Origin: a virus
Taxonomy: Duplodnaviria; Heunggongvirae; Uroviricota; Caudoviricetes
IMG/VR virus record: IMGVR_UViG_2585427776_000014
DNA length: 15,553 bases
Strand: one strand, 5' to 3'
In this document: piece by piece, positions 1-12,245 of the stretch
How the letters are laid out: every line of letters starts with the position of its first letter
Numbering within the stretch: position 1 is the stretch's first letter
Notes under the pieces: model-generated
Seen by the model: only the letters and a program-made list of their open reading frames with translations
What the model was told of the DNA's origin: nothing
Databases searched by the model: none
Made by a program: the position numbers and the translations under genes

Positions 1-71
1 ACCAAAGCATGACATCTCTGTTTCGCACCGAAGGTGACACTTCTGCTTTGCGTTGACAGGAGAAGCAGGCT

Positions 72-227
72 ATGAAGCAGCAAAAGGCGATGTTAATCGC
101 CCTGATCGTCATCTGTTTAACCGTCATAGTGACGGCACTGGTAACGAGGAAAGACCTCTGCGAGGTACGAATCCGAACCGGCCAGACGGAGGTCGCTGTC
201 TTCACAGCTTACGAACCTGAGGAGTAA
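72..227 (+). CDS. hokD: Hok-family type I toxin, 51 aa
   Basis: ATG at 72 with AGGAG at 57-61. Translation MKQQKAMLIALIVICLTVIVTALVTRKDLCEVRIRTGQTEVAVFTAYEPEE has the Hok/Gef layout (N-terminal TM helix, conserved Cys, acidic tail). Absent from the ORF track because it is under 60 aa. Position next to rem fits the K-12 relB-relE-hokD locus. Confidence 0.9.
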   Translation: MKQQKAMLIALIVICLTVIVTALVTRKDLCEVRIRTGQTEVAVFTAYEPEE

Positions 228-296
228 GAGACCCGGCGGGGGAGAAATCCCTCGCCACCTCTGATGTGGCAGGCATCCTCAACGCACCCGCACTTA

Positions 297-323
297 ACCC
301 GCTTCGGCGGGTTTTTGTTTTTA
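297..323 (+). terminator. Rho-independent terminator downstream of hokD
   Basis: GC stem CCCGC(298-302)/GCGGG(307-311) with TTCG loop, followed by TTTTTGTTTTT (312-322). Confidence 0.5.
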
Positions 324-443
324 TTTTCAACGCGTTTGAAGTTCTGGACGGTGCCGGAATAGAATCAAAAATACTTAAGTAGCGCGCAGGGATAAGAGGG
401 ATGGTCCCTTAAAGGGGAGAGCTAATTATCCGGAAGGATTCTG

Positions 444-695
444 ATGATGAACATCGAAGAACTGCGTAAAATTTTTTGTGAAGATGGCCTCTATGCTGTG
501 TGCGTTGAAAATGGAAATCTTGTTAGTCATTACCGCATTATGTGTTTGCGAAAGAATGGGGCTGCGTTAATTAATTTTGTGGATGCTCGGGTCACGGACG
601 GATTTATCTTGCGCGAAGGTGAGTTTGTCACTTCATTACAGGCATTGAAAGAGATCGGAATAAAAGCTGGCTTTTCTGCTTTTTCAGGAGAATAA
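444..695 (+). CDS. rem: Small prophage protein Rem, 83 aa, function unknown
   Basis: ORF track 444..695; GGAAGG at 433-438 as RBS. Length and position between hokD and ydfU match K-12 rem as I recall it. Confidence 0.75.
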   Translation: MMNIEELRKIFCEDGLYAVCVENGNLVSHYRIMCLRKNGAALINFVDARVTDGFILREGEFVTSLQALKEIGIKAGFSAFSGE

Positions 696-761
696 ACTCA
701 TCTACAATCTTGCGCGGGGCTGAACTCCCGCTGAGTAACACCGTGCCACCGGAGAAAACCG

Positions 762-1040
762 ATGGCACGCAACGCAAAATATTACAATTCTGATAATTCG
801 CCCGTTCTTGCCTGCACGCACGGGCGGTATTCTCACGCATTCAAGTCTGAATGGTTCCAGCACCCTCCATGCACTGCAGAACAGGCCGAATGGCTGATTC
901 ATTCTTACCGCAGGCGCGGGTTCGAGGTTAAGAAAGCTCTCAGTCTCGACTATCGGCACTGGATAATCTCTGTCAGGCTGCCTTATTCCGAACGCCCACC
1001 ACGTGCGTCCCGCACTTTCCAGCAACGGATCTGGAGGTAA
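762..1040 (+). CDS. Hypothetical 92-aa protein, possibly unannotated; translationally coupled to ydfU
   Basis: ATG at 762 with GGAG at 751-754 (7-nt spacing). Stop TAA at 1038-1040 lies one base before the ydfU GTG at 1042. I do not recall a named K-12 gene here. Confidence 0.4.
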   Translation: MARNAKYYNSDNSPVLACTHGRYSHAFKSEWFQHPPCTAEQAEWLIHSYRRRGFEVKKALSLDYRHWIISVRLPYSERPPRASRTFQQRIWR

Positions 1041-1041
1041 C

Positions 1042-2091
1042 GTGCGGGTATTACTTAGACCTGTTCTGGTGCCTGAGCTTGGGCTGGTGGTCCTTAAGCC
1101 GGGCCGTGAATCCATACAGATATTTCATAATCCTCGAGTGCTGGTGGAACCGGAACCAAAAAGCATGCGTAATCTGCCATCCGGAGTCGTTCCTGCCGTT
1201 CGCCAGCCGCTGGCGGAAGACAAAACATTGCTGCCGTTTTTTAGTAACGAACGGGTGATTCGTGCTGCTGGCGGCGTTGGCGCATTGTCCGACTGGCTAT
1301 TACGTCATGTTACATCCTGCCAGTGGCCTAATGGCGATTACCATCACACTGAAACAGTCATTCACCGTTATGGTACCGGCGCAATGGTGTTGTGCTGGCA
1401 CTGCGACAACCAACTGCGTGACCAGACATCGGAATCACTGGAGCTGCTTGCTCAACAAAATCTGACAGCATGGGTGATTGACGTCATCCGTCACGCAATA
1501 AGCGGTACGCAGGAGCGGGAATTATCTTTGGCTGAATTATCCTGGTGGGCGGTCTGCAATCAGGTGGTGGATGCACTACCTGAGGCTGTATCGCGTCGTT
1601 CGCTGGGATTACCAGCGGAAAAAATCTGCTCGGTGTACCGCGAAAGCGACATCGTACCGGGAGAGCAGACCGCCACCAGCATATTGAAACAACGCACAAA
1701 AAATCTTGCACCGTTGCCTTACGCCCACCAGCAACAAAAATCACCACAGGAAAAGACGGTGGTAAGCATCACCGTTGATCCAGAGTCTCCGGAATCTTTC
1801 ATGAAGCTGCCTAAACGTCGCCGCTGGGTTAAGGAGAAATACACACGTTGGGTTAAGACACAGCCGTGTGCTTGCTGCGGTATGCCAGCCGACGATCCGC
1901 ATCATCTGATTGGTCACGGGCAGGGCGGAATGGGAACAAAAGCACATGATCTCTTTGTGTTGCCTTTGTGCAGAAAGCATCACAACGAGCTGCATACGGA
2001 TACAGTGGCATTTGAAGATAAGTATGGCTCCCAACTGGAGCTGATATTTCGTTTTATCGATCGCGCGCTGACAATTGGCGTACTGGCGTAA
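1042..2091 (+). CDS. ydfU: Prophage protein YdfU (DUF968-like), 349 aa, with a Cys/His-rich C-terminal motif
   Basis: Track ORF 1003..2091; preferred start is GTG at 1042 with GGAGG at 1033-1037, giving 349 aa. C-terminus carries CACCG...DPHHL...CRKHHNELH. Sits in the nin-region position immediately upstream of Q. Confidence 0.8.
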   Translation: MRVLLRPVLVPELGLVVLKPGRESIQIFHNPRVLVEPEPKSMRNLPSGVVPAVRQPLAEDKTLLPFFSNERVIRAAGGVGALSDWLLRHVTSCQWPNGDYHHTETVIHRYGTGAMVLCWHCDNQLRDQTSESLELLAQQNLTAWVIDVIRHAISGTQERELSLAELSWWAVCNQVVDALPEAVSRRSLGLPAEKICSVYRESDIVPGEQTATSILKQRTKNLAPLPYAHQQQKSPQEKTVVSITVDPESPESFMKLPKRRRWVKEKYTRWVKTQPCACCGMPADDPHHLIGHGQGGMGTKAHDLFVLPLCRKHHNELHTDTVAFEDKYGSQLELIFRFIDRALTIGVLA

Positions 2092-2104
2092 GTGGAGAAC
2101 GAGC

Positions 2105-2857
2105 ATGAACCTTGAAGCCTTACCAAAATATTACTCCCCAAAATCTCCAAAATTGAGCGATGACGCTCCAGCGACAGGCACCGGTTGTTTAACAATTACG
2201 GATGTAATGGCAGCGCAGGGGATGGTGCAGTCGAAAGCACCACTTGGGTTGGCCTTATTTCTGGCAAAAGTTGGTGTTCAGGACCCTCAGTTTGCGATTG
2301 AAGGCCTGCTAAATTACGCGATGGCACTGGATAACCCGACATTGAACAAATTGAGTGAAGAAATCCGGTTACAGATTATTCCTTACCTCGTGAGTTTTGC
2401 CTTTGCTGATTACTCCAGGTCTGCGGCAAGTAAGGCTCGCTGTGAGCATTGTTCAGGTACGGGATTTTATAATGTATTGCGCGAAGTGGTGAAACACTAC
2501 AGACGCGGGGAATCTGTAATCAAGGAAGAATGGGTGAAGGAACTATGTCAGCATTGCCATGGTAAGGGCGAAGCCAGCACAGCGTGCAGAGGGTGTAAGG
2601 GTAAAGGGATTGTTCTGGATGAAAAAAGAACCCGGTTTCATGGCGTACCGGTATATAAGATTTGTGGGCGTTGTAATGGAAACCGGTTTAGTCGTTTACC
2701 GACCACGCTGGCACGACGTCATGTCCAGAAGCTGGTACCAGACCTGACCGATTATCAGTGGTATAAGGGGTATGCGGACGTCATTGGTAAACTGGTAACA
2801 AAGTGCTGGCAGGAAGAAGCATACGCGGAAGCGCAATTGAGGAAGGTGACGAGATAA
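2105..2857 (+). CDS. quuQ: Late-gene antiterminator Q (phage 82/21-type), 250 aa
   Basis: Track ORF 2075..2857; ATG at 2105 with GGAGA at 2093-2097 gives 250 aa. Contains four CxxCxGxG-type Cys pairs. Located directly upstream of a strong promoter plus terminator, then the lysis genes. Confidence 0.85.
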   Translation: MNLEALPKYYSPKSPKLSDDAPATGTGCLTITDVMAAQGMVQSKAPLGLALFLAKVGVQDPQFAIEGLLNYAMALDNPTLNKLSEEIRLQIIPYLVSFAFADYSRSAASKARCEHCSGTGFYNVLREVVKHYRRGESVIKEEWVKELCQHCHGKGEASTACRGCKGKGIVLDEKRTRFHGVPVYKICGRCNGNRFSRLPTTLARRHVQKLVPDLTDYQWYKGYADVIGKLVTKCWQEEAYAEAQLRKVTR

Positions 2858-2888
2858 ATGATTTTTGCTGAAGATGGCGACATGATGT

Positions 2889-2917
2889 TTGCATTTTTCA
2901 AAAAATATGGATAAAAT
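2889..2917 (+). promoter_or_regulatory. Candidate late promoter (PR'-like) downstream of Q
   Basis: TTGCAT (2889-2894), 17-nt spacer, TAAAAT (2912-2917). It occupies the position where lambdoid phages place PR' and the Q-utilisation site. Confidence 0.45.
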
Positions 2918-2963
2918 TTTTTCAACGATGGGCTTTGTATACCCGACGTTAAGAAAAAGTAGA

Positions 2964-2993
2964 AAACCCGCTGATGAGCGGGTTTTGTGCTTT
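2964..2993 (+). terminator. Rho-independent terminator about 40 nt after the candidate late promoter (tR'-like)
   Basis: Stem AAACCCGC (2964-2971)/GCGGGTTT (2978-2985) with loop TGATGA, followed by a T-rich tract. It would yield a short leader RNA unless Q-modified polymerase reads through. Confidence 0.5.
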
Positions 2994-3278
2994 AAATGGG
3001 GCAATGGTAATGTTGAATCTCATCCCGGGACTCATGTCTGTTAACTTATTATTTAGCTGGTGACTTGGTTATTTGCCTGATGTTTAAAATGTTTTCTTCC
3101 AGTACAATGTCCCTAAACACAATGAGTCTGCTTATTATATTATTAGCAGAGCTATTACGGCCAAAGTACAGCATAAGCTTTTAAAGCCAATCAACCAGTC
3201 ATCAAGACAGACGGGGTTATTCATAAAAACTCTCCATGTGTGATCCGATGGGGCCTGAAATTAAAGCTTTAATATAGC

Positions 3279-3491
3279 TCATGAAAGGTAAACATTGGCA
3301 GCTGAAGGGCCACGCAGACCATTTATCCGGCAAAATTCCACGCGTAATCCGGTGGTAATTTCTTCTGCATCGCGGAGATTGAGCGCTGAAACATGAAGCT
3401 GGACATCGATACGACCATCGGATGGGGTGATAAGACCCTTGCCGCTTTTGCCGTCAAAGGTTTTGACAATTCCTGTCATTTTACGGGACAA
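3279..3491 (-). CDS. cspF: Cold-shock protein family member CspF, 70 aa
   Basis: Track [29 protein letters not shown]... has the cold-shock-domain fold signature but a divergent RNP1 motif. Divergently arranged with cspB, as in K-12. Confidence 0.9.
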
Positions 3492-3791
3492 AAAAATTCC
3501 TTAATACTGATAACTTGGCGCACTATACACACGTTCCTGAAGAAAGCTATAGTTTTTTGATGGGGTTGAAGATGGCTGGATGTCTAAAATAAACATTGCT
3601 TCATATGTTCAACTATGCGTTAATGATTGCGTCGGTTTGAAGAACAGACGATATACGAAGTAGTTTACTAAAGCAGTTCTCATTTCAGGTGTTATTCACT
3701 TATTCCTTCTTTGAGTCTCTCCAATTAAGTACGAAGTCGTTTCTGTTATGCAAACCATTTATGCCGAAAGGCTCAAGTTAAGGAATGTAGA

Positions 3792-4007
3792 ATGTCAAAT
3801 AAAATGACTGGTTTAGTAAAATGGTTTAACGCTGATAAAGGTTTCGGCTTTATTTCTCCTGTTGATGGTAGTAAAGATGTGTTTGTGCATTTTTCTGCGA
3901 TTCAGAATGATAATTATCGAACCTTATTTGAAGGTCAAAAGGTTACCTTCTCTATAGAGAGTGGTGCTAAAGGTCCTGCAGCAGCAAATGTCATCATTAC
4001 TGATTAA
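3792..4007 (+). CDS. cspB: Cold-shock protein CspB, 71 aa
   Basis: [38 protein letters not shown]... carries the canonical CspA-family RNP1 (KGFGFI) and RNP2 (VFVHF) motifs; a roughly 300-nt AT-rich upstream region precedes it. Confidence 0.95.
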
Positions 4008-4118
4008 AATTCATCGCTCGTCTGTATACGATAACGAAGAAGGCTGATGCCTGAGTAGAGATACGGACAGAGTAGTGAATATTGGATCTCTTTAATAAAA
4101 AGTAAGGAGGTCCAATAC

Positions 4119-4154
4119 ATGAAACAATGGCTAGCATATTTGGCAAAATCTTAA
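4119..4154 (+). CDS. Candidate 11-codon small ORF (MKQWLAYLAKS) behind a perfect Shine-Dalgarno
   Basis: TAAGGAGGT at 4103-4111, 7-nt spacer, ATG at 4119, TAA at 4152-4154. Coding status is unproven. Confidence 0.3.
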   Translation: MKQWLAYLAKS

Positions 4155-4288
4155 TCAGGAAAAGTATGCTAACCATTGTGGTGAAGTGCAGGTTTGCTGC
4201 ATGAATAGTTTTACAGCAGAAGCTAACTGCTGGCATGGCAAAACAAAGTGCGTAAGTGGATGACTCCCACAAAAAGCACCACAATCTC

Positions 4289-4315
4289 AAACCCGCTCAG
4301 GCGGGGTTTTTATTA
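4289..4315 (+). terminator. Rho-independent terminator about 280 nt downstream of cspB
   Basis: Stem CCCGC (4292-4296)/GCGGG (4301-4305) with loop TCAG, followed by TTTTTATTAT. Confidence 0.5.
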
Positions 4316-4370
4316 TCTGCTTTAAATATATTATTAAAATATAAAAAATACTTGTTACTAATAAAATCAA

Positions 4371-4541
4371 TCAGGCTACAGCTTTAAGATTTGTCTGGAA
4401 TACTTTGTTGCAATGAGGGCAGATCAAAAGGGCACCTTTTTGTACTCTTGAAAAACTGTGTTCTGACTCTTGGGTGCAGTTTGGGCAGGAACATTTAACG
4501 AGATAATTACGGCGTGATTTTGAGTTTTTACGTTCTGACAT
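4371..4541 (-). CDS. ynfU: 56-aa zinc-ribbon small protein (two CxxC-type pairs)
   Basis: Minus-strand ORF; preferred start is the internal ATG giving MSERKNSKSRRNYLVKCSCPNCTQESEHSFSRVQKGALLICPHCNKVFQTNLKAVA, with AGGA about 9 nt upstream. The symbol ynfU is from memory of the K-12 small-protein catalogue and is uncertain. Confidence 0.55.
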   Translation of the reverse strand: MSERKNSKSRRNYLVKCSCPNCTQESEHSFSRVQKGALLICPHCNKVFQTNLKAVA

Positions 4542-4760
4542 AGGCTTTTCCTGTATAAATGGCCGTATACAGTACACTAAATATGAAAACATTTCTCGTA
4601 TTATTATTTTATATATGACTTTCTTTCAAAATAATTACCCACATTTTTAATGTGTATGTTTTTTTAGCGCCGTTGAGAACAACGTGTGCTGTCAAAACTA
4701 CCCCGTAGACTCCGATCTTTTCAAACATATTGCACCATCCGTGTACATCGGGGTGAGGAT

Positions 4761-4976
4761 ATGAAATCAATGGATAAGTTAACAACAGGTGTTGCCTATG
4801 GCACATCGGCGGGTAATGCTGGTTTCTGGGCATTGCAGTTACTCGATAAAGTAACTCCGTCACAGTGGGCTGCAATCGGTGTGCTGGGTAGCCTGGTTTT
4901 TGGCCTGCTGACGTATCTGACAAATCTTTATTTCAAGATTAAAGAAGACAGGCGTAAGGCTGCGAGAGGAGAGTAA
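4761..4976 (+). CDS. essQ: Pinholin (phage 21 S21-like class II holin), 71 aa, with dual-start motif
   Basis: [26 protein letters not shown]...[13 protein letters not shown]: Met1-Lys2-Ser3-Met4 dual start, two TM segments and a charged C-terminus. Closely resembles phage 21 S as I recall it. The track ORF 4686..4976 extends upstream of the likely start. Confidence 0.9.
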
Positions 4977-4980
4977 TCCA

Positions 4981-5288
4981 ATGACTCAAGACTATGAACT
5001 GGTTGTGAAAGGAGTCCGTAATTTTGAGAATAAAGTTACGGTAACTGTAGCCTTACAGGACAAAGAACGCTTTGACGGTGAAATTTTTGACCTGGATGTC
5101 GCCATGGACCGTGTTGAAGGAGCTGCGCTGGAGTTTTATGAGGCAGCAGCCAGAAGGAGCGTCCGGCAAGTCTTCCTGGAAGTAGCAGAAAAATTGTCAG
5201 AAAAAGTTGAGTCTTATCTGCAGCATCAGTACTCCTTTAAGATTGAAAATCCTGCCAATAAGCACGAGCGTCCTCATCATAAATATCT

Positions 5289-5292
<4 letters not shown>
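4981..5292 (+). CDS. ydfR: Prophage protein YdfR, 103 aa, function unknown, inserted between holin and endolysin
   Basis: Track ORF with AGGAGAG RBS at 4964-4970. Its stop overlaps the rrrQ start in an ATGA arrangement at 5289-5292. Confidence 0.85.
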
Positions 5293-6316
<1,024 letters not shown>

Positions 6317-6542
6317 GGTAATATTAAATCGGAACATTTACATCGCGGAATGTAAAATTTAAATAAAAAGGACTCTTCCATGAGCCAAAATTCCTGAAAT
6401 CTTAAGGGTAAGATAAAAGGTCTTAATCAGAATGACACGTTTTATTAATAAATAAAGCTATTCTTTCATTGCTGTGTTTTTCTTTACAAAAGTAATCCTT
6501 GCTATGGGTGGTTAATCATGCGTTAATGGTGTTCTGGTTTGT

Positions 6543-6575
6543 TACAAATTTATCTGAAGCAGTCATTGTTATAAT
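6543..6575 (+). promoter_or_regulatory. Candidate cspI promoter with extended -10
   Basis: TGTTATAAT at 6567-6575 (TGn plus TATAAT); the -35 is weak (TTACAA at 6543-6548, non-optimal spacing). About 100 nt upstream of the cspI ATG. Confidence 0.3.
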
Positions 6576-6678
6576 TTTATTATTTGTACCTCTTGAGATT
6601 TCCTTGTTGGTTTTTCTCTCTGATATTTTTTTTCGGACCATTCTGCCCAAGGGCTAATTTCTTCAAAAGGTAATAATT

Positions 6679-6891
6679 ATGTCTAACAAAATGACTGGTT
6701 TAGTGAAATGGTTTAACCCTGAAAAAGGTTTTGGTTTCATCACGCCGAAAGATGGCAGCAAAGATGTGTTTGTCCATTTCTCAGCAATTCAGAGCAACGA
6801 TTTCAAAACATTAACTGAGAATCAGGAAGTTGAATTTGGTATTGAGAACGGACCTAAAGGTCCTGCCGCTGTTCATGTAGTGGCGCTTTGA
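6679..6891 (+). CDS. cspI: Cold-shock protein CspI, 70 aa
   Basis: [38 protein letters not shown]... has canonical RNP1/RNP2 motifs; a long AT-rich upstream region precedes it. Confidence 0.95.
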
Positions 6892-7090
6892 GGTAGACAA
6901 TATTACAAACCATATTCACTTTAGATGCCCGTGTTGTCATGGTTCCCAGTATAGAACATCATCTTTTGATGTTTCTGACATGAATCCTTTCGGGGCAAAA
7001 TGTATCTTTTGTAAATCAATGATGATTACATTTGATAATATTTCACAATACTTAAATGCCAGCCGTCTGTCGTTGGATTTAAAAAAGTGA
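6881..7090 (+). pseudogene. Start-less zinc-ribbon ORF, paralog of the 4371-4541 protein, lying in the cspI 3' region
   Basis: Frame open 6881-7090 reads ...HFRCPCCHGSQYRTSSFDVSDMNPFGAKCIFCKSMMITFDNISQYLNASRLSLDLKK*. It shares the C-x-C-x1-2-C ... SF ... C-x2-C pattern with the 56-aa ORF. No ATG/GTG/TTG precedes the first Cys cluster; the only in-frame ATG (6980) would give 36 aa lacking the first Cys pair. Confidence 0.45.
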
Positions 7091-7096
7091 AAATGA

Positions 7097-7119
7097 AGGC
7101 TCCTTCGGGAGCTTTTTTG
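7097..7119 (+). terminator. Rho-independent terminator closing the cspI/zinc-ribbon transcript
   Basis: Stem GGCTCC (7098-7103)/GGAGCT (7108-7113) with loop TTCG, followed by TTTTT (7114-7118). Confidence 0.5.
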
Positions 7120-7237
7120 CTTGGTGTCTATTCGATGGATACTCACATACTACGGTAACATCATGAAAAAAATCATAGTTTTTTTTAACTCTGAACCAGC
7201 AGTGGTAGTGCCAGCGATGACTGGAGTTAACACCATC

Positions 7238-11670: not shown

Positions 11671-12245
11671 TGGCATTCAGAATGAGTGAACAACCACGGA
11701 CCATAAAAATTTATAATCTGCTGGCCGGAACTAATGAATTTATTGGTGAAGGTGATGCATATATTCCGCCTCATACAGGTCTGCCAGCAAACAGTACCGA
11801 TATTGCACCGCCAGATATTCCGGCTGGCTTCGTGGCTGTTTTCAACAGTGATGAGTCATCGTGGCATCTCGTTGAAGATCATCGGGGTAAAACGGTTTAT
11901 GACGTGGCTTCCGGCGACGCGTTATTTATTTCTGAACTCGGTCCGTTACCGGAAAATGTTACCTGGTTATCGCCGGAAGGGGAGTTTCAGAAGTGGAACG
12001 GCACAGCCTGGGTGAAGGATACGGAAGCAGAAAAACTGTTCCGGATCCGGGAGGCGGAAGAAACAAAAAACAACCTGATGCAGGTAGCCAGTGAGCATAT
12101 TGCGCCGCTTCAGGATGCTGCAGATCTGGAAATTGCAACGGAGGAAGAAATCTCGTTGCTGGAAGCATGGAAAAAGTATCGGGTATTGCTGAACCGTGTT
12201 GATACGTCAACTGCACAGGATATTGAATGGCCAGCACTACCGTAG
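11670..12245 (+). CDS. tfaQ: Tail fibre assembly protein (Tfa chaperone), 191 aa
   Basis: Track [51 protein letters not shown]...; Tfa-family N-terminus, position directly after stf. Confidence 0.9.

Follow-up and report, generated by a model that had tools for sequence, protein, structure and literature searches.

A probable lambda-type late-gene control module behind the Q gene of the cryptic Qin prophage of Escherichia coli

Immediately after the Q antiterminator gene of the Qin prophage of E. coli, which is annotated as cryptic in RefSeq, lie a promoter-like sequence, a hairpin, and several small genes on both strands. What is this arrangement, and how would transcription entering it affect the genes beyond? 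The window, i.e., the whole 15,553-nt stretch of DNA analyzed here, corresponds to Qin, with just three mismatches to K-12 MG1655 over positions 1–7185. The best overall explanation, to which a probability of roughly 80% is given, is that promoter-like sequence and hairpin belong to the late-gene control module of this lambdoid prophage, consisting of a PR' promoter, a Q-utilization site, and a tR' terminator. PR' and tR' are an ordinary lambda-type late promoter, with its pause site, and terminator, and are visible in public K-12 data; homology with lambda PR', these public data, and conservation together indicate that they are real and the source of a constitutive RNA of about 67 nt. No paper was found that names this promoter as the Qin late promoter or describes Q-dependent expression in Qin. 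The identification would account for three unexplained K-12 signals (a Term-seq 3' end classed as “orphan,” a dRNA-seq start, and a sigma70 pause), and would place a lambda-type Q target on the K-12 chromosome, with the same module following Q in Stx2c phages.

The upstream gene, ydfT/quuQ (2105–2857, plus strand), encodes a 250-aa Q antiterminator according to RefSeq annotation, Pfam (PF03589, the lambda-Q family, E = 3.6e-54), and a structure match to Q-lambda (7UBM, E = 4.6e-36). The last is in two stretches, residues 1–120 and 160–250 of the query, covering both halves of the protein. The homology to lambda Q thus extends over the full length, but some 40 aa are inserted in the Qin protein, and this insertion carries an additional CxxCxGxG zinc motif (DnaJ_CXXCXGXG, E = 1.3e-08). 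The reading frame is intact, and identical copies are found in many genomes. The stop codon ends at 2857 and the -35 element begins at 2889, 32 nt past the gene, so that the promoter comes just after Q, as in lambda. The preliminary description had proposed a lambda-type PR'/tR' module in this position, and the Q family, the homology to lambda PR', and the pause element described below all bear this out.

The promoter core, on the plus strand, has a -35 TTGCAT (2889–2894), a 17-nt spacer TTTTCAAAAAATATGGA (2895–2911), and a -10 TAAAAT (2912–2917). These hexamers, their coordinates, and their spacing are as first described, but “near-consensus” is too generous: the -10 matches the consensus at five of six positions and the -35 at just three of six (TTGACA). 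Promoter-like sites are also no commoner in the window (30) than in shuffled sequence (29.0 ± 6.4), and by themselves the hexamers do not rise above chance. It could accordingly be argued that they are chance occurrences and the hairpin merely the terminator of a cspF-ynfS or ydfU-ydfT operon, since the hairpin is predicted to function in either orientation and RpoD genomic SELEX, which reports promoters between cspB and cspF and between cspB and essQ, lists none between ydfT and cspF. That reading is scarcely credible, being contradicted by a transcription start at the position predicted from lambda together with a top-ranked sigma70 pause, and by the conservation of promoter and hairpin together in phages without cspF.

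Each position of the Qin promoter core has its counterpart in lambda PR' (TTGACT-17-TAAATT), although the Qin -35 is the weaker; TCAACGATGGG, the sigma70 pause element, is identical in the two. The start mapped by dRNA-seq (Thomason 2015; NC_000913.2 1640446(-), as listed in PMC7876045) corresponds to A2924, exactly where the comparison with lambda predicts it and within the interval, 2920–2930, in which the preliminary description had called for one. The initially transcribed bases at +1 to +6 (2924–2929) are the -10-like AACGAT, identical in lambda as AACGAT(GGG). RNET-seq with sigma70 pull-down (delta-greAB sheet) places RNA 3' ends 16 and 17 nt from the start, at 2940 and 2941 (1640430(-), score 5783, and 1640429(-), score 6881). 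As rows 24 and 12, respectively, of the score-ranked delta-greAB list, these rank genome-wide with the strongest pauses associated with sigma70, and show that the pull-down recovered RNA polymerase at this promoter. The pause positions at lambda PR' are +16/+17, so the Qin pause lies within about 1 nt of them. By analogy with lambda, the pause would result from sigma70 rebinding to AACGAT. The spacer TTTTCAAAAAATATGGA, which is almost invariant among relatives but differs from that of lambda, is on the same grounds a candidate Q-binding element: QuuQ would bind it, load onto the paused polymerase, and make the polymerase resistant to terminators.

An intrinsic terminator had been proposed to follow the promoter, and one is indeed present. 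At 2963–2993, a hairpin with stem AAAACCCGCU/AGCGGGUUUU and loop GAUG (2963–2986) is followed by the U-rich GUGCUUU to 2993, and Term-seq of uninduced K-12 has a plus-strand 3' end at C2990 (NC_000913.3 1642356(-); three listings, two of them with scores of 103591 and 55368). Folding of the RNA from 2924 to 3000 gives a z-score of -6.0, with a second value of -4.2 for the terminator. The distance from the start is about +67, compared to +194 for lambda tR'. Since a terminator scan called the hairpin on the minus strand, it is predicted to be bidirectional and could also end cspF-ynfS transcripts. This second direction is a prediction only, with no cspF-ynfS 3' end seen at the hairpin in Term-seq. 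The hairpin is retained in phages without cspF.

Joining the separate start and 3'-end data sets suggests a single, constitutive RNA species of about 67 nt (2924–2990, plus strand), a counterpart of the lambda 6S RNA and of StxS; in lambda, too, the short RNA is constitutive and terminated, and the lysis genes lie downstream. Not all of the RNA ending at 2990 need come from PR'; transcripts of ydfU-ydfT upstream could contribute part of it. The short RNA might also be a functional product of the lysogen, a trans-acting sRNA of the type represented by StxS in Stx phages and IsrK in Gifsy-1; these, too, are short, abundant RNAs made by premature termination from constitutive late promoters (PMC7547250). 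There is thus precedent for regulators of this origin, and the Qin RNA is abundant under more than one growth condition (the two Term-seq scores above), with a predicted 5' hairpin in addition to the terminator hairpin and its U-tail. The chance of such a function is nevertheless put as small. The searches turned up no data on Hfq binding or targets, and when six PR'-tR' RNAs were folded to a consensus no compensatory base changes emerged, leaving the 5' hairpin without covariation support. Unlike StxS and IsrK, the Qin RNA also has no significant Rfam match, and no regulatory role, Hfq binding, or targets have been described for it. At gathering thresholds Rfam gives nothing in 2850–3300; the best matches to the short RNA, isrK (16.6 bits, cut-off 50) and isrJ (16.8 bits, cut-off 37), are sub-threshold and driven by the terminator, and do not place it in a StxS/IsrK-type family. 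The other permissive matches (Phe, Trp, and Leu leaders, rnk, OrzO-P, and P9) were rejected with these two, as terminator-driven and far below their cut-offs.

Of 80 related viral contigs, 67 retain the module, and the PR' core is nearly invariant in these as well as in six phages. Cultured phages show 79–100% conservation; 2H10, Tritos, SfV, and Ayreon carry the module, as do Stx2c phages, and in SfV and Ayreon the hairpin is annotated as a terminator. Similarity to the relatives ends just past the hairpin (window 2986), after which the cargo differs between phages and is in some cases co-oriented with PR'. Because similarity stops there and the cargo differs from phage to phage, the csp pair looks like cargo inserted into a variable slot behind tR', the inserted block probably comprising ynfS-cspF and cspB. 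Stx2c phages have tRNAs in this slot; there are none in the window. The order Q, cspF (minus), cspB (plus), holin is the same in the functional phage 2H10 as in Qin, while in a Tritos-like lineage a frameshift and a 3'-terminal truncation make cspF a pseudogene, in 21 of 80 loci, including that of cultured phage Tritos. The complete stretch from PR' to cspF is found in 1410 of 5426 complete E. coli genomes (26%). Nearly all copies of this layout are at least 99% identical, however, so they represent one recent lineage and cannot be counted as separate instances in favor of selection.

Contrary to the preliminary description, cspF is not the first gene beyond the terminator. Between them on the minus strand is ynfS (3135–3224), a RefSeq-annotated gene for a 29-aa small protein (Pfam PF23697, E = 4.7e-23) that has been detected by tagging (PMC6001520). 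A plus-strand Term-seq 3' end falls inside it, at 3158, so some plus-strand RNA is present beyond tR' even without induction; no other plus-strand 3' end is listed between there and the cspB leader. The cold-shock-domain gene cspF (3279–3491, minus strand; annotation and Pfam CSD, E = 5.6e-22) is convergent with PR', with a likely -10 TATAGT at 3527–3522 that is conserved with the cspH promoter region. Beyond it and co-oriented with PR' is cspB (3631–4007, plus strand), composed of a cspA-type thermoregulator leader (Rfam RF01766, 158.8 bits) and a coding sequence at 3792–4007 (Pfam CSD, E = 9.8e-32). It has a Rho-dependent 3' end at 3712 and a Rho region at 3809, and at 37 °C Rho cuts its transcription short. 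A second hairpin terminator, called by the scan (4292–4312), separates cspB from ynfU (4371–4541, minus strand), with an opposite-strand Term-seq 3' end beside it (1641060(+), window 4286). The lysis cassette essQ-ydfR-rrrQ-rzpQ follows (4761–6316, plus strand; annotation and Pfam holin PF04971, DUF1327, lysozyme PF00959, and DUF2514) and is the expected Q late target. Both cspB and the cassette, at essQ, have promoter sites of their own. Some 1.8 kb of cargo, in which two genes and one promoter are directed against PR', therefore lie between tR' and the holin gene, a clear difference from the lambda late operon.

In uninduced cells, transcription with sigma70 starts at A2924, pauses strongly 16–17 nt on, and ends at C2990. 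If the module worked as in lambda, polymerase modified by Q would pass tR' and cross ynfS, cspF, and the cspF promoter in antisense. It would then run in the sense direction through cspB, past its Rho-dependent attenuation and the second hairpin, and finally over ynfU in antisense to the lysis genes. The path first proposed, antisense to cspF and sense to cspB and the lysis genes, is thus upheld as far as the gene layout goes. Q-driven read-through into the lysis and late genes of Qin would be expected from this layout and from the cultured phages that share the module. In the lysogen, tR' is presumably bidirectional and, if so, most likely insulates cspF and ynfS from PR' and its high activity. 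Should cspF be turned off when the prophage is induced, this would plausibly be a by-product of head-on transcription.

A stronger proposal is that the layout was selected as a programmed switch, with Q antitermination repressing cspF and ynfS, through either head-on transcription or antisense RNA, and co-expressing cspB with the lysis genes. The gene geometry fits, the cspF promoter is in the path of the read-through, and the plus-strand 3' end at 3158 shows that some plus-strand RNA is present beyond tR' without induction. The same layout occurs in functional phage 2H10 and in 26% of complete E. coli genomes. Overriding Rho is an established property of polymerase modified by lambda Q, and the attenuation of cspB at 37 °C should yield in the same way. 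Selection for a switch is still judged unlikely. No expression data were found that tie cspF or cspB to Q, the near identity of almost all copies removes them as independent evidence, and the decay of cspF in 21 of 80 related loci argues against a required role. Relatives have co-oriented cargo in the same slot, and the homologous cspH-cspG pair functions in the chromosome without any PR'. The antisense idea, if true, would be a modest addition to how prophage cargo genes switch between lysogeny and lytic growth.

Qin is defective, and Q may never be made in K-12. It is given slightly less than an even chance that the PR'/tR' module is active but that only the terminated short RNA is ever made in Qin, Q being unexpressed or non-functional, cspF, cspB, and the lysis genes depending on their own promoters, and antisense read-through not occurring. 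The cryptic annotation of the prophage favors this, as do the promoter sites at cspB and essQ. Between the immunity region and Q are toxin-antitoxin genes (relBE, hokD) and the oppositely oriented ydfV and flxA, and there is a strong Term-seq 3' end upstream of ydfU-ydfT, at window 774 (1644572-). On the other side are the intact Q frame with its identical copies in many genomes, the promoter, pause, and terminator, all intact and active, and the nearly identical modules in cultured phages.

At the opposite extreme, Q antitermination might serve the whole phage group as a strand switch for its cold-shock-domain genes. In the lysogen, PR' would rank among the cell's most active paused promoters, with bidirectional tR' shielding cspF and ynfS and Rho preventing cspB expression at 37 °C. 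Once the prophage was induced, Q-modified polymerase would override both tR' and the Rho block in the cspB leader; cspF, ynfS, and ynfU would be silenced by head-on transcription, and the RNA chaperones CspB and CspI would be delivered with the lysis proteins, independent of temperature. Taken as a whole, this scheme is decidedly improbable.

Other known arrangements can be compared with that of the cargo. The divergent cspH-cspG pair of K-12 is 76% identical to window 3283–3906, which covers the cspF coding region, the intergenic region, and the start of cspB, so that the promoter region is shared as well. It is chromosomal, however, with no Q, PR', tR', or ynfS adjoining, and would thus be unexposed to antiterminated transcription. 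In DLP12, nmpC was considered as a parallel case of a reverse gene between PR' and the lysis genes, but was rejected on account of a strong paused promoter downstream of nmpC, 169 nt before essD. The lambda bor gene, a reverse-oriented cargo gene (“moron”) within the late operon, offers a precedent: it is expressed in the lysogen from its own promoter, on the strand opposite to the late genes and in the path of Q-modified late transcription. The borD gene of DLP12 is arranged likewise. Lambda bor follows Rz/Rz1 directly, on the minus strand, and is thus past the lysis genes, while the reverse-oriented genes of Qin come before the lysis genes and directly behind tR', where, if the terminator is bidirectional as predicted, they would be shielded in the lysogen.

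The promoter PR' (2889-2917, +) and the hairpin terminator tR' (2963-2993), between the Q antiterminator gene ydfT/quuQ and cspF, are strongly supported in that identity: an alignment to lambda, a transcription start site (TSS) at 2924, a pause at 2940/2941, a 3' end at 2990, and conservation in phages all bear out the preliminary description on this point. Alignment to E. coli K-12 MG1655 (NC_000913.3) places them in the cryptic lambdoid prophage Qin, in reverse complement orientation, with three differences over window 1-7185 (positions 1667, 2071, and 4306); genome position is 1645346 minus window position. Collinearity is lost after 7186, and the window therefore derives from the Qin-like prophage of a different strain. 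An Rfam match to IS009 (220.9 bits) is found at 12013-12211 (+). Gene order, from RefSeq annotation and Pfam, is ydfU (1003-2091, +), ydfT/quuQ (2105-2857, +), ynfS (3135-3224, −; a 29-aa small-protein gene between tR' and cspF), cspF (3279-3491, −), cspB (3792-4007, +), ynfU (4371-4541, −), the lysis cassette essQ, ydfR, rrrQ, and rzpQ (4761-6316, +), and cspI (6679-6891, +).

The PR' core consists of a -35 TTGCAT (2889-2894) and a -10 TAAAAT (2912-2917) with a 17-nt spacer, and the tR' hairpin is AAAACCCGCU-GAUG-AGCGGGUUUU (2963-2986), followed by GUGCUUU. These elements had been placed correctly, but calling the promoter “near-consensus” was an overstatement, as the -35 matches TTGACA at just three of six positions. 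A consensus scan of the window gave 30 promoter-like sites (29.0 ± 6.4 in shuffles) and 18 terminator-like sites (14.1 ± 4.0), about as in the shuffles, so the PR' hexamers prove nothing on their own. The scan also detected the tR' hairpin on the minus strand, making the terminator bidirectional on paper. Just downstream is an imperfect direct repeat, TTATTTAGCTGGTG / TTATTTGCCTGATG (3049-3062 and 3069-3082, +), its copies 20 nt apart.

Anchored on the -35, Qin PR' (TTGCAT-17-TAAAAT-TTTTTC-AACGATGGG) aligns without gaps to lambda PR' (TTGACT-17-TAAATT-TGACTC-AACGATGGG), and the expected Qin start site is therefore A2924. In work by Roberts and colleagues, lambda AACGAT (+1 to +6) is reported to be a -10-like element that sigma70 rebinds, bringing about the +16/+17 pause where Q loading takes place.

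Published K-12 data agree with this expectation. An RNET-seq study of pauses associated with sigma70 (PMC7876045) pairs each site with the closest dRNA-seq TSS reported by Thomason et al. (2015). In its sigma70 pull-down, delta-greAB sheet, ranked by score, rows 12 and 24 hold positions 1640429(−) (score 6881) and 1640430(−) (score 5783), and the TSS listed as nearest to both is 1640446(−), at distances of 17 and 16, respectively. These coordinates are those of NC_000913.2, offset here by 1976 from version 3, a value that agrees with the genomic SELEX coordinates of the cspB-cspF spacer. The listed TSS then maps to window 2924, the exact base predicted from lambda, and the pauses map to 2940 and 2941. 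This start answers the refuting condition of the preliminary description, the lack of one near 2920-2930. In Term-seq data (supplementary file 1 of PMC7815308), an “orphan” 3' end is entered three times at NC_000913.3 1642356(−), which corresponds to the C of GGGUUUUGUGC at window 2990, and two of the entries score 103591 and 55368. Together these indicate a constitutive PR'-tR' RNA of about 67 nt (2924-2990), taken as a single species by deduction, since start and end derive from separate data sets. RNA 2924-3000 has a folding energy of -30.4 kcal/mol (z = -6.0). The PR'-tR' RNA has no significant Rfam match, and consensus folding of six such RNAs found no covariation support for its 5' hairpin. 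Known short RNAs of terminated PR' promoters are lambda 6S RNA, StxS, and IsrK (PMC7547250).

The product of ydfT/quuQ, QuuQ, belongs to the lambda-Q family (Pfam PF03589, E 3.6e-54), and both of its halves match Q-lambda as seen in 7UBM and 7UBN, structures of the loading complex (E 4.6e-36). With a lambda-Q family gene upstream, an active sigma70 promoter, a pause near +16/+17, and a terminator, the Qin module belongs, by the criteria tested, to the Q late-control system of the lambda type and would work in the same way. The element is ordinary for its class, which is well understood, and its bacterium is the best studied of all. As far as could be found, the public data behind this identity had not previously been connected to the element, and no paper testing QuuQ was found in the literature on quuQ/ydfT or Qin with cspF. 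There are several differences from lambda: tR' is much nearer (about +67 vs. +194), the spacer sequence differs, the -35 is weaker, and QuuQ has an insertion of ~40 residues (about 121-159) that adds zinc motifs of the form CxxCxGxG. Pfam scores a DnaJ central zinc-finger domain in this insertion. Also unlike lambda, Qin carries ~1.8 kb of cargo, partly reverse-oriented, ahead of the holin gene. Reverse-oriented cargo within a late operon is however already known: lambda bor is on the opposite strand directly after Rz/Rz1, and borD of the K-12 prophage DLP12 is similar.

Cultured or sequenced phages share the region from the Q stop codon through the hairpin (2858-2986) at 79-100% identity, among them PhiR42_1, HannyBb, PhiR63_1, 2H10, Tritos, SfV, mEp460, Ayreon, Lys8385Vzw, Salmonella phage 118970_sal3, and several Stx2c-converting phages; the SfV and Ayreon records annotate the hairpin as a terminator. 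When six of these phages are aligned, the -35, spacer, and CAACGATGGGCTTTGT show hardly any variation and the -10 reads either TAAAAT or TAAGAT; the hairpin stem is kept, while the loop and U-tract length vary. Of 80 IMG/VR contigs whose Q proteins are at least 94% identical, 67 have the strict pattern of promoter, pause element, and hairpin, and most of the others are single-base variants (e.g., AATGAT or a different hairpin). Between lineages, similarity stops at 2986. The hairpin is followed in Qin and 2H10 by ynfS-cspF (reverse) and then cspB, in the Tritos type by the same genes with a 258-bp deletion, in SfV and Ayreon by a co-oriented small ORF and DNA methylase, and in the Stx2c phages by co-oriented ORFs and then tRNA genes. 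Cargo is thus carried in a slot just 3' of tR', with the csp pair as one example. In HannyBb (L004 1438-2379 and 3932-8133), the end of Q and PR' are present twice; the first copy stops at the pause site (equivalent to window 2940), and ~1.55 kb of unrelated DNA separates it from a second, complete PR'-tR'-cspF unit.

That read-through of tR' would run antisense across cspF is a matter of geometry. The preliminary description went further and proposed, as a hypothesis, that induction represses cspF through antisense transcription and brings co-expression of cspB; the antisense effect on cspF is plausible, with precedent in kind, but unproven. In its favor, the layout occurs with an intact cspF in cultured phage 2H10, and 1410 of 5426 complete E. 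coli genomes have it; however, 1285 of the 1410 best matches are at least 99% identical, representing one recent lineage, so this count gives no independent support. Against the proposal, cspF is disrupted in the Tritos-like lineage (21 of the 80 viral loci, e.g., L045 and L047-L068), where the 258-bp deletion (equivalent to window 3031-3288; L006 4175/4176) takes out ynfS together with the final cspF codons and a frameshift, early in the gene in Tritos, disrupts the remainder. In this lineage cspF is therefore a pseudogene, with cspB intact. Qin is moreover a defective prophage and might never produce its Q.

Co-expression is also weakened by cspB having its own promoter and a cspA-type thermoregulatory leader (Rfam RF01766, 158.8 bits; leader/gene region 3631-4122, +). 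Published data place a Rho-dependent 3' end in the leader at 3712 and a Rho region at 3809, a block that RNA polymerase carrying Q should override, which speaks for the proposal. The dominant cspB 3' end, at 4120-4122, is ~170 nt ahead of a canonical hairpin (4292-4305). This hairpin (region 4286-4312), between cspB (+) and ynfU (−), is also bidirectional, and a Term-seq 3' end on the ynfU strand is at 4286. Further against the proposal, TTTATA-16-AATAAT in the cspB-essQ spacer (4608-4635, +) matches a constitutive RpoD promoter that genomic SELEX assigned to essQ-rrrQ-ydfP and marked with an H-NS site, and may thus give the lysis cassette a Q-independent promoter. The chromosomal homologue cspH-cspG (K-12 locus L010, 1968-2576) is 76% identical over window 3283-3906, intergenic promoters included, and the likely cspF -10 (TATAGT, 3527-3522, −) is conserved with cspH; the chromosomal pair has no Q, PR', or tR' beside it. 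Genes resembling ymcF/ynfQ and gnsA/gnsB come after a csp gene at both loci, which suggests either that cspG-gnsA was left behind by a Qin-like prophage or that it was the source of one.

In uninduced cells, then, transcription initiates at 2924, undergoes a sigma70-associated pause at 2940/2941, and terminates at 2990. By analogy with lambda, QuuQ would bind the conserved spacer, a candidate Q site, engage the paused complex, and confer terminator resistance. From the geometry, the modified polymerase would pass tR', meet ynfS, cspF, and the cspF promoter head-on, transcribe cspB in sense past 3712, 3809, and the 4292-4305 hairpin, cross ynfU antisense, and reach essQ. In a lysogen, tR', predicted to act in both directions, would prevent transcription from a very active promoter from entering cspF-ynfS, which seems the more secure functional statement about this arrangement. 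Some + strand RNA does exist past tR', as there is a + strand Term-seq 3' end at 3158 (genome 1642188−), inside ynfS and after a weak hairpin (3127-3150); it has one entry in the file, and its score (87904) is close to the tR' score of that sheet. This RNA may stem from leak-through or from a start of its own.

K-12 has one other prophage with a Q, DLP12. Rows 2 and 4 of that RNET-seq list, with a listed TSS at 576452 (NC_000913.2), map 169 nt upstream of essD in DLP12 (L011 about 1730-1800), and a CCCGCCGTCGAGCGGG hairpin follows; the arrangement resembles a late promoter with its terminator.
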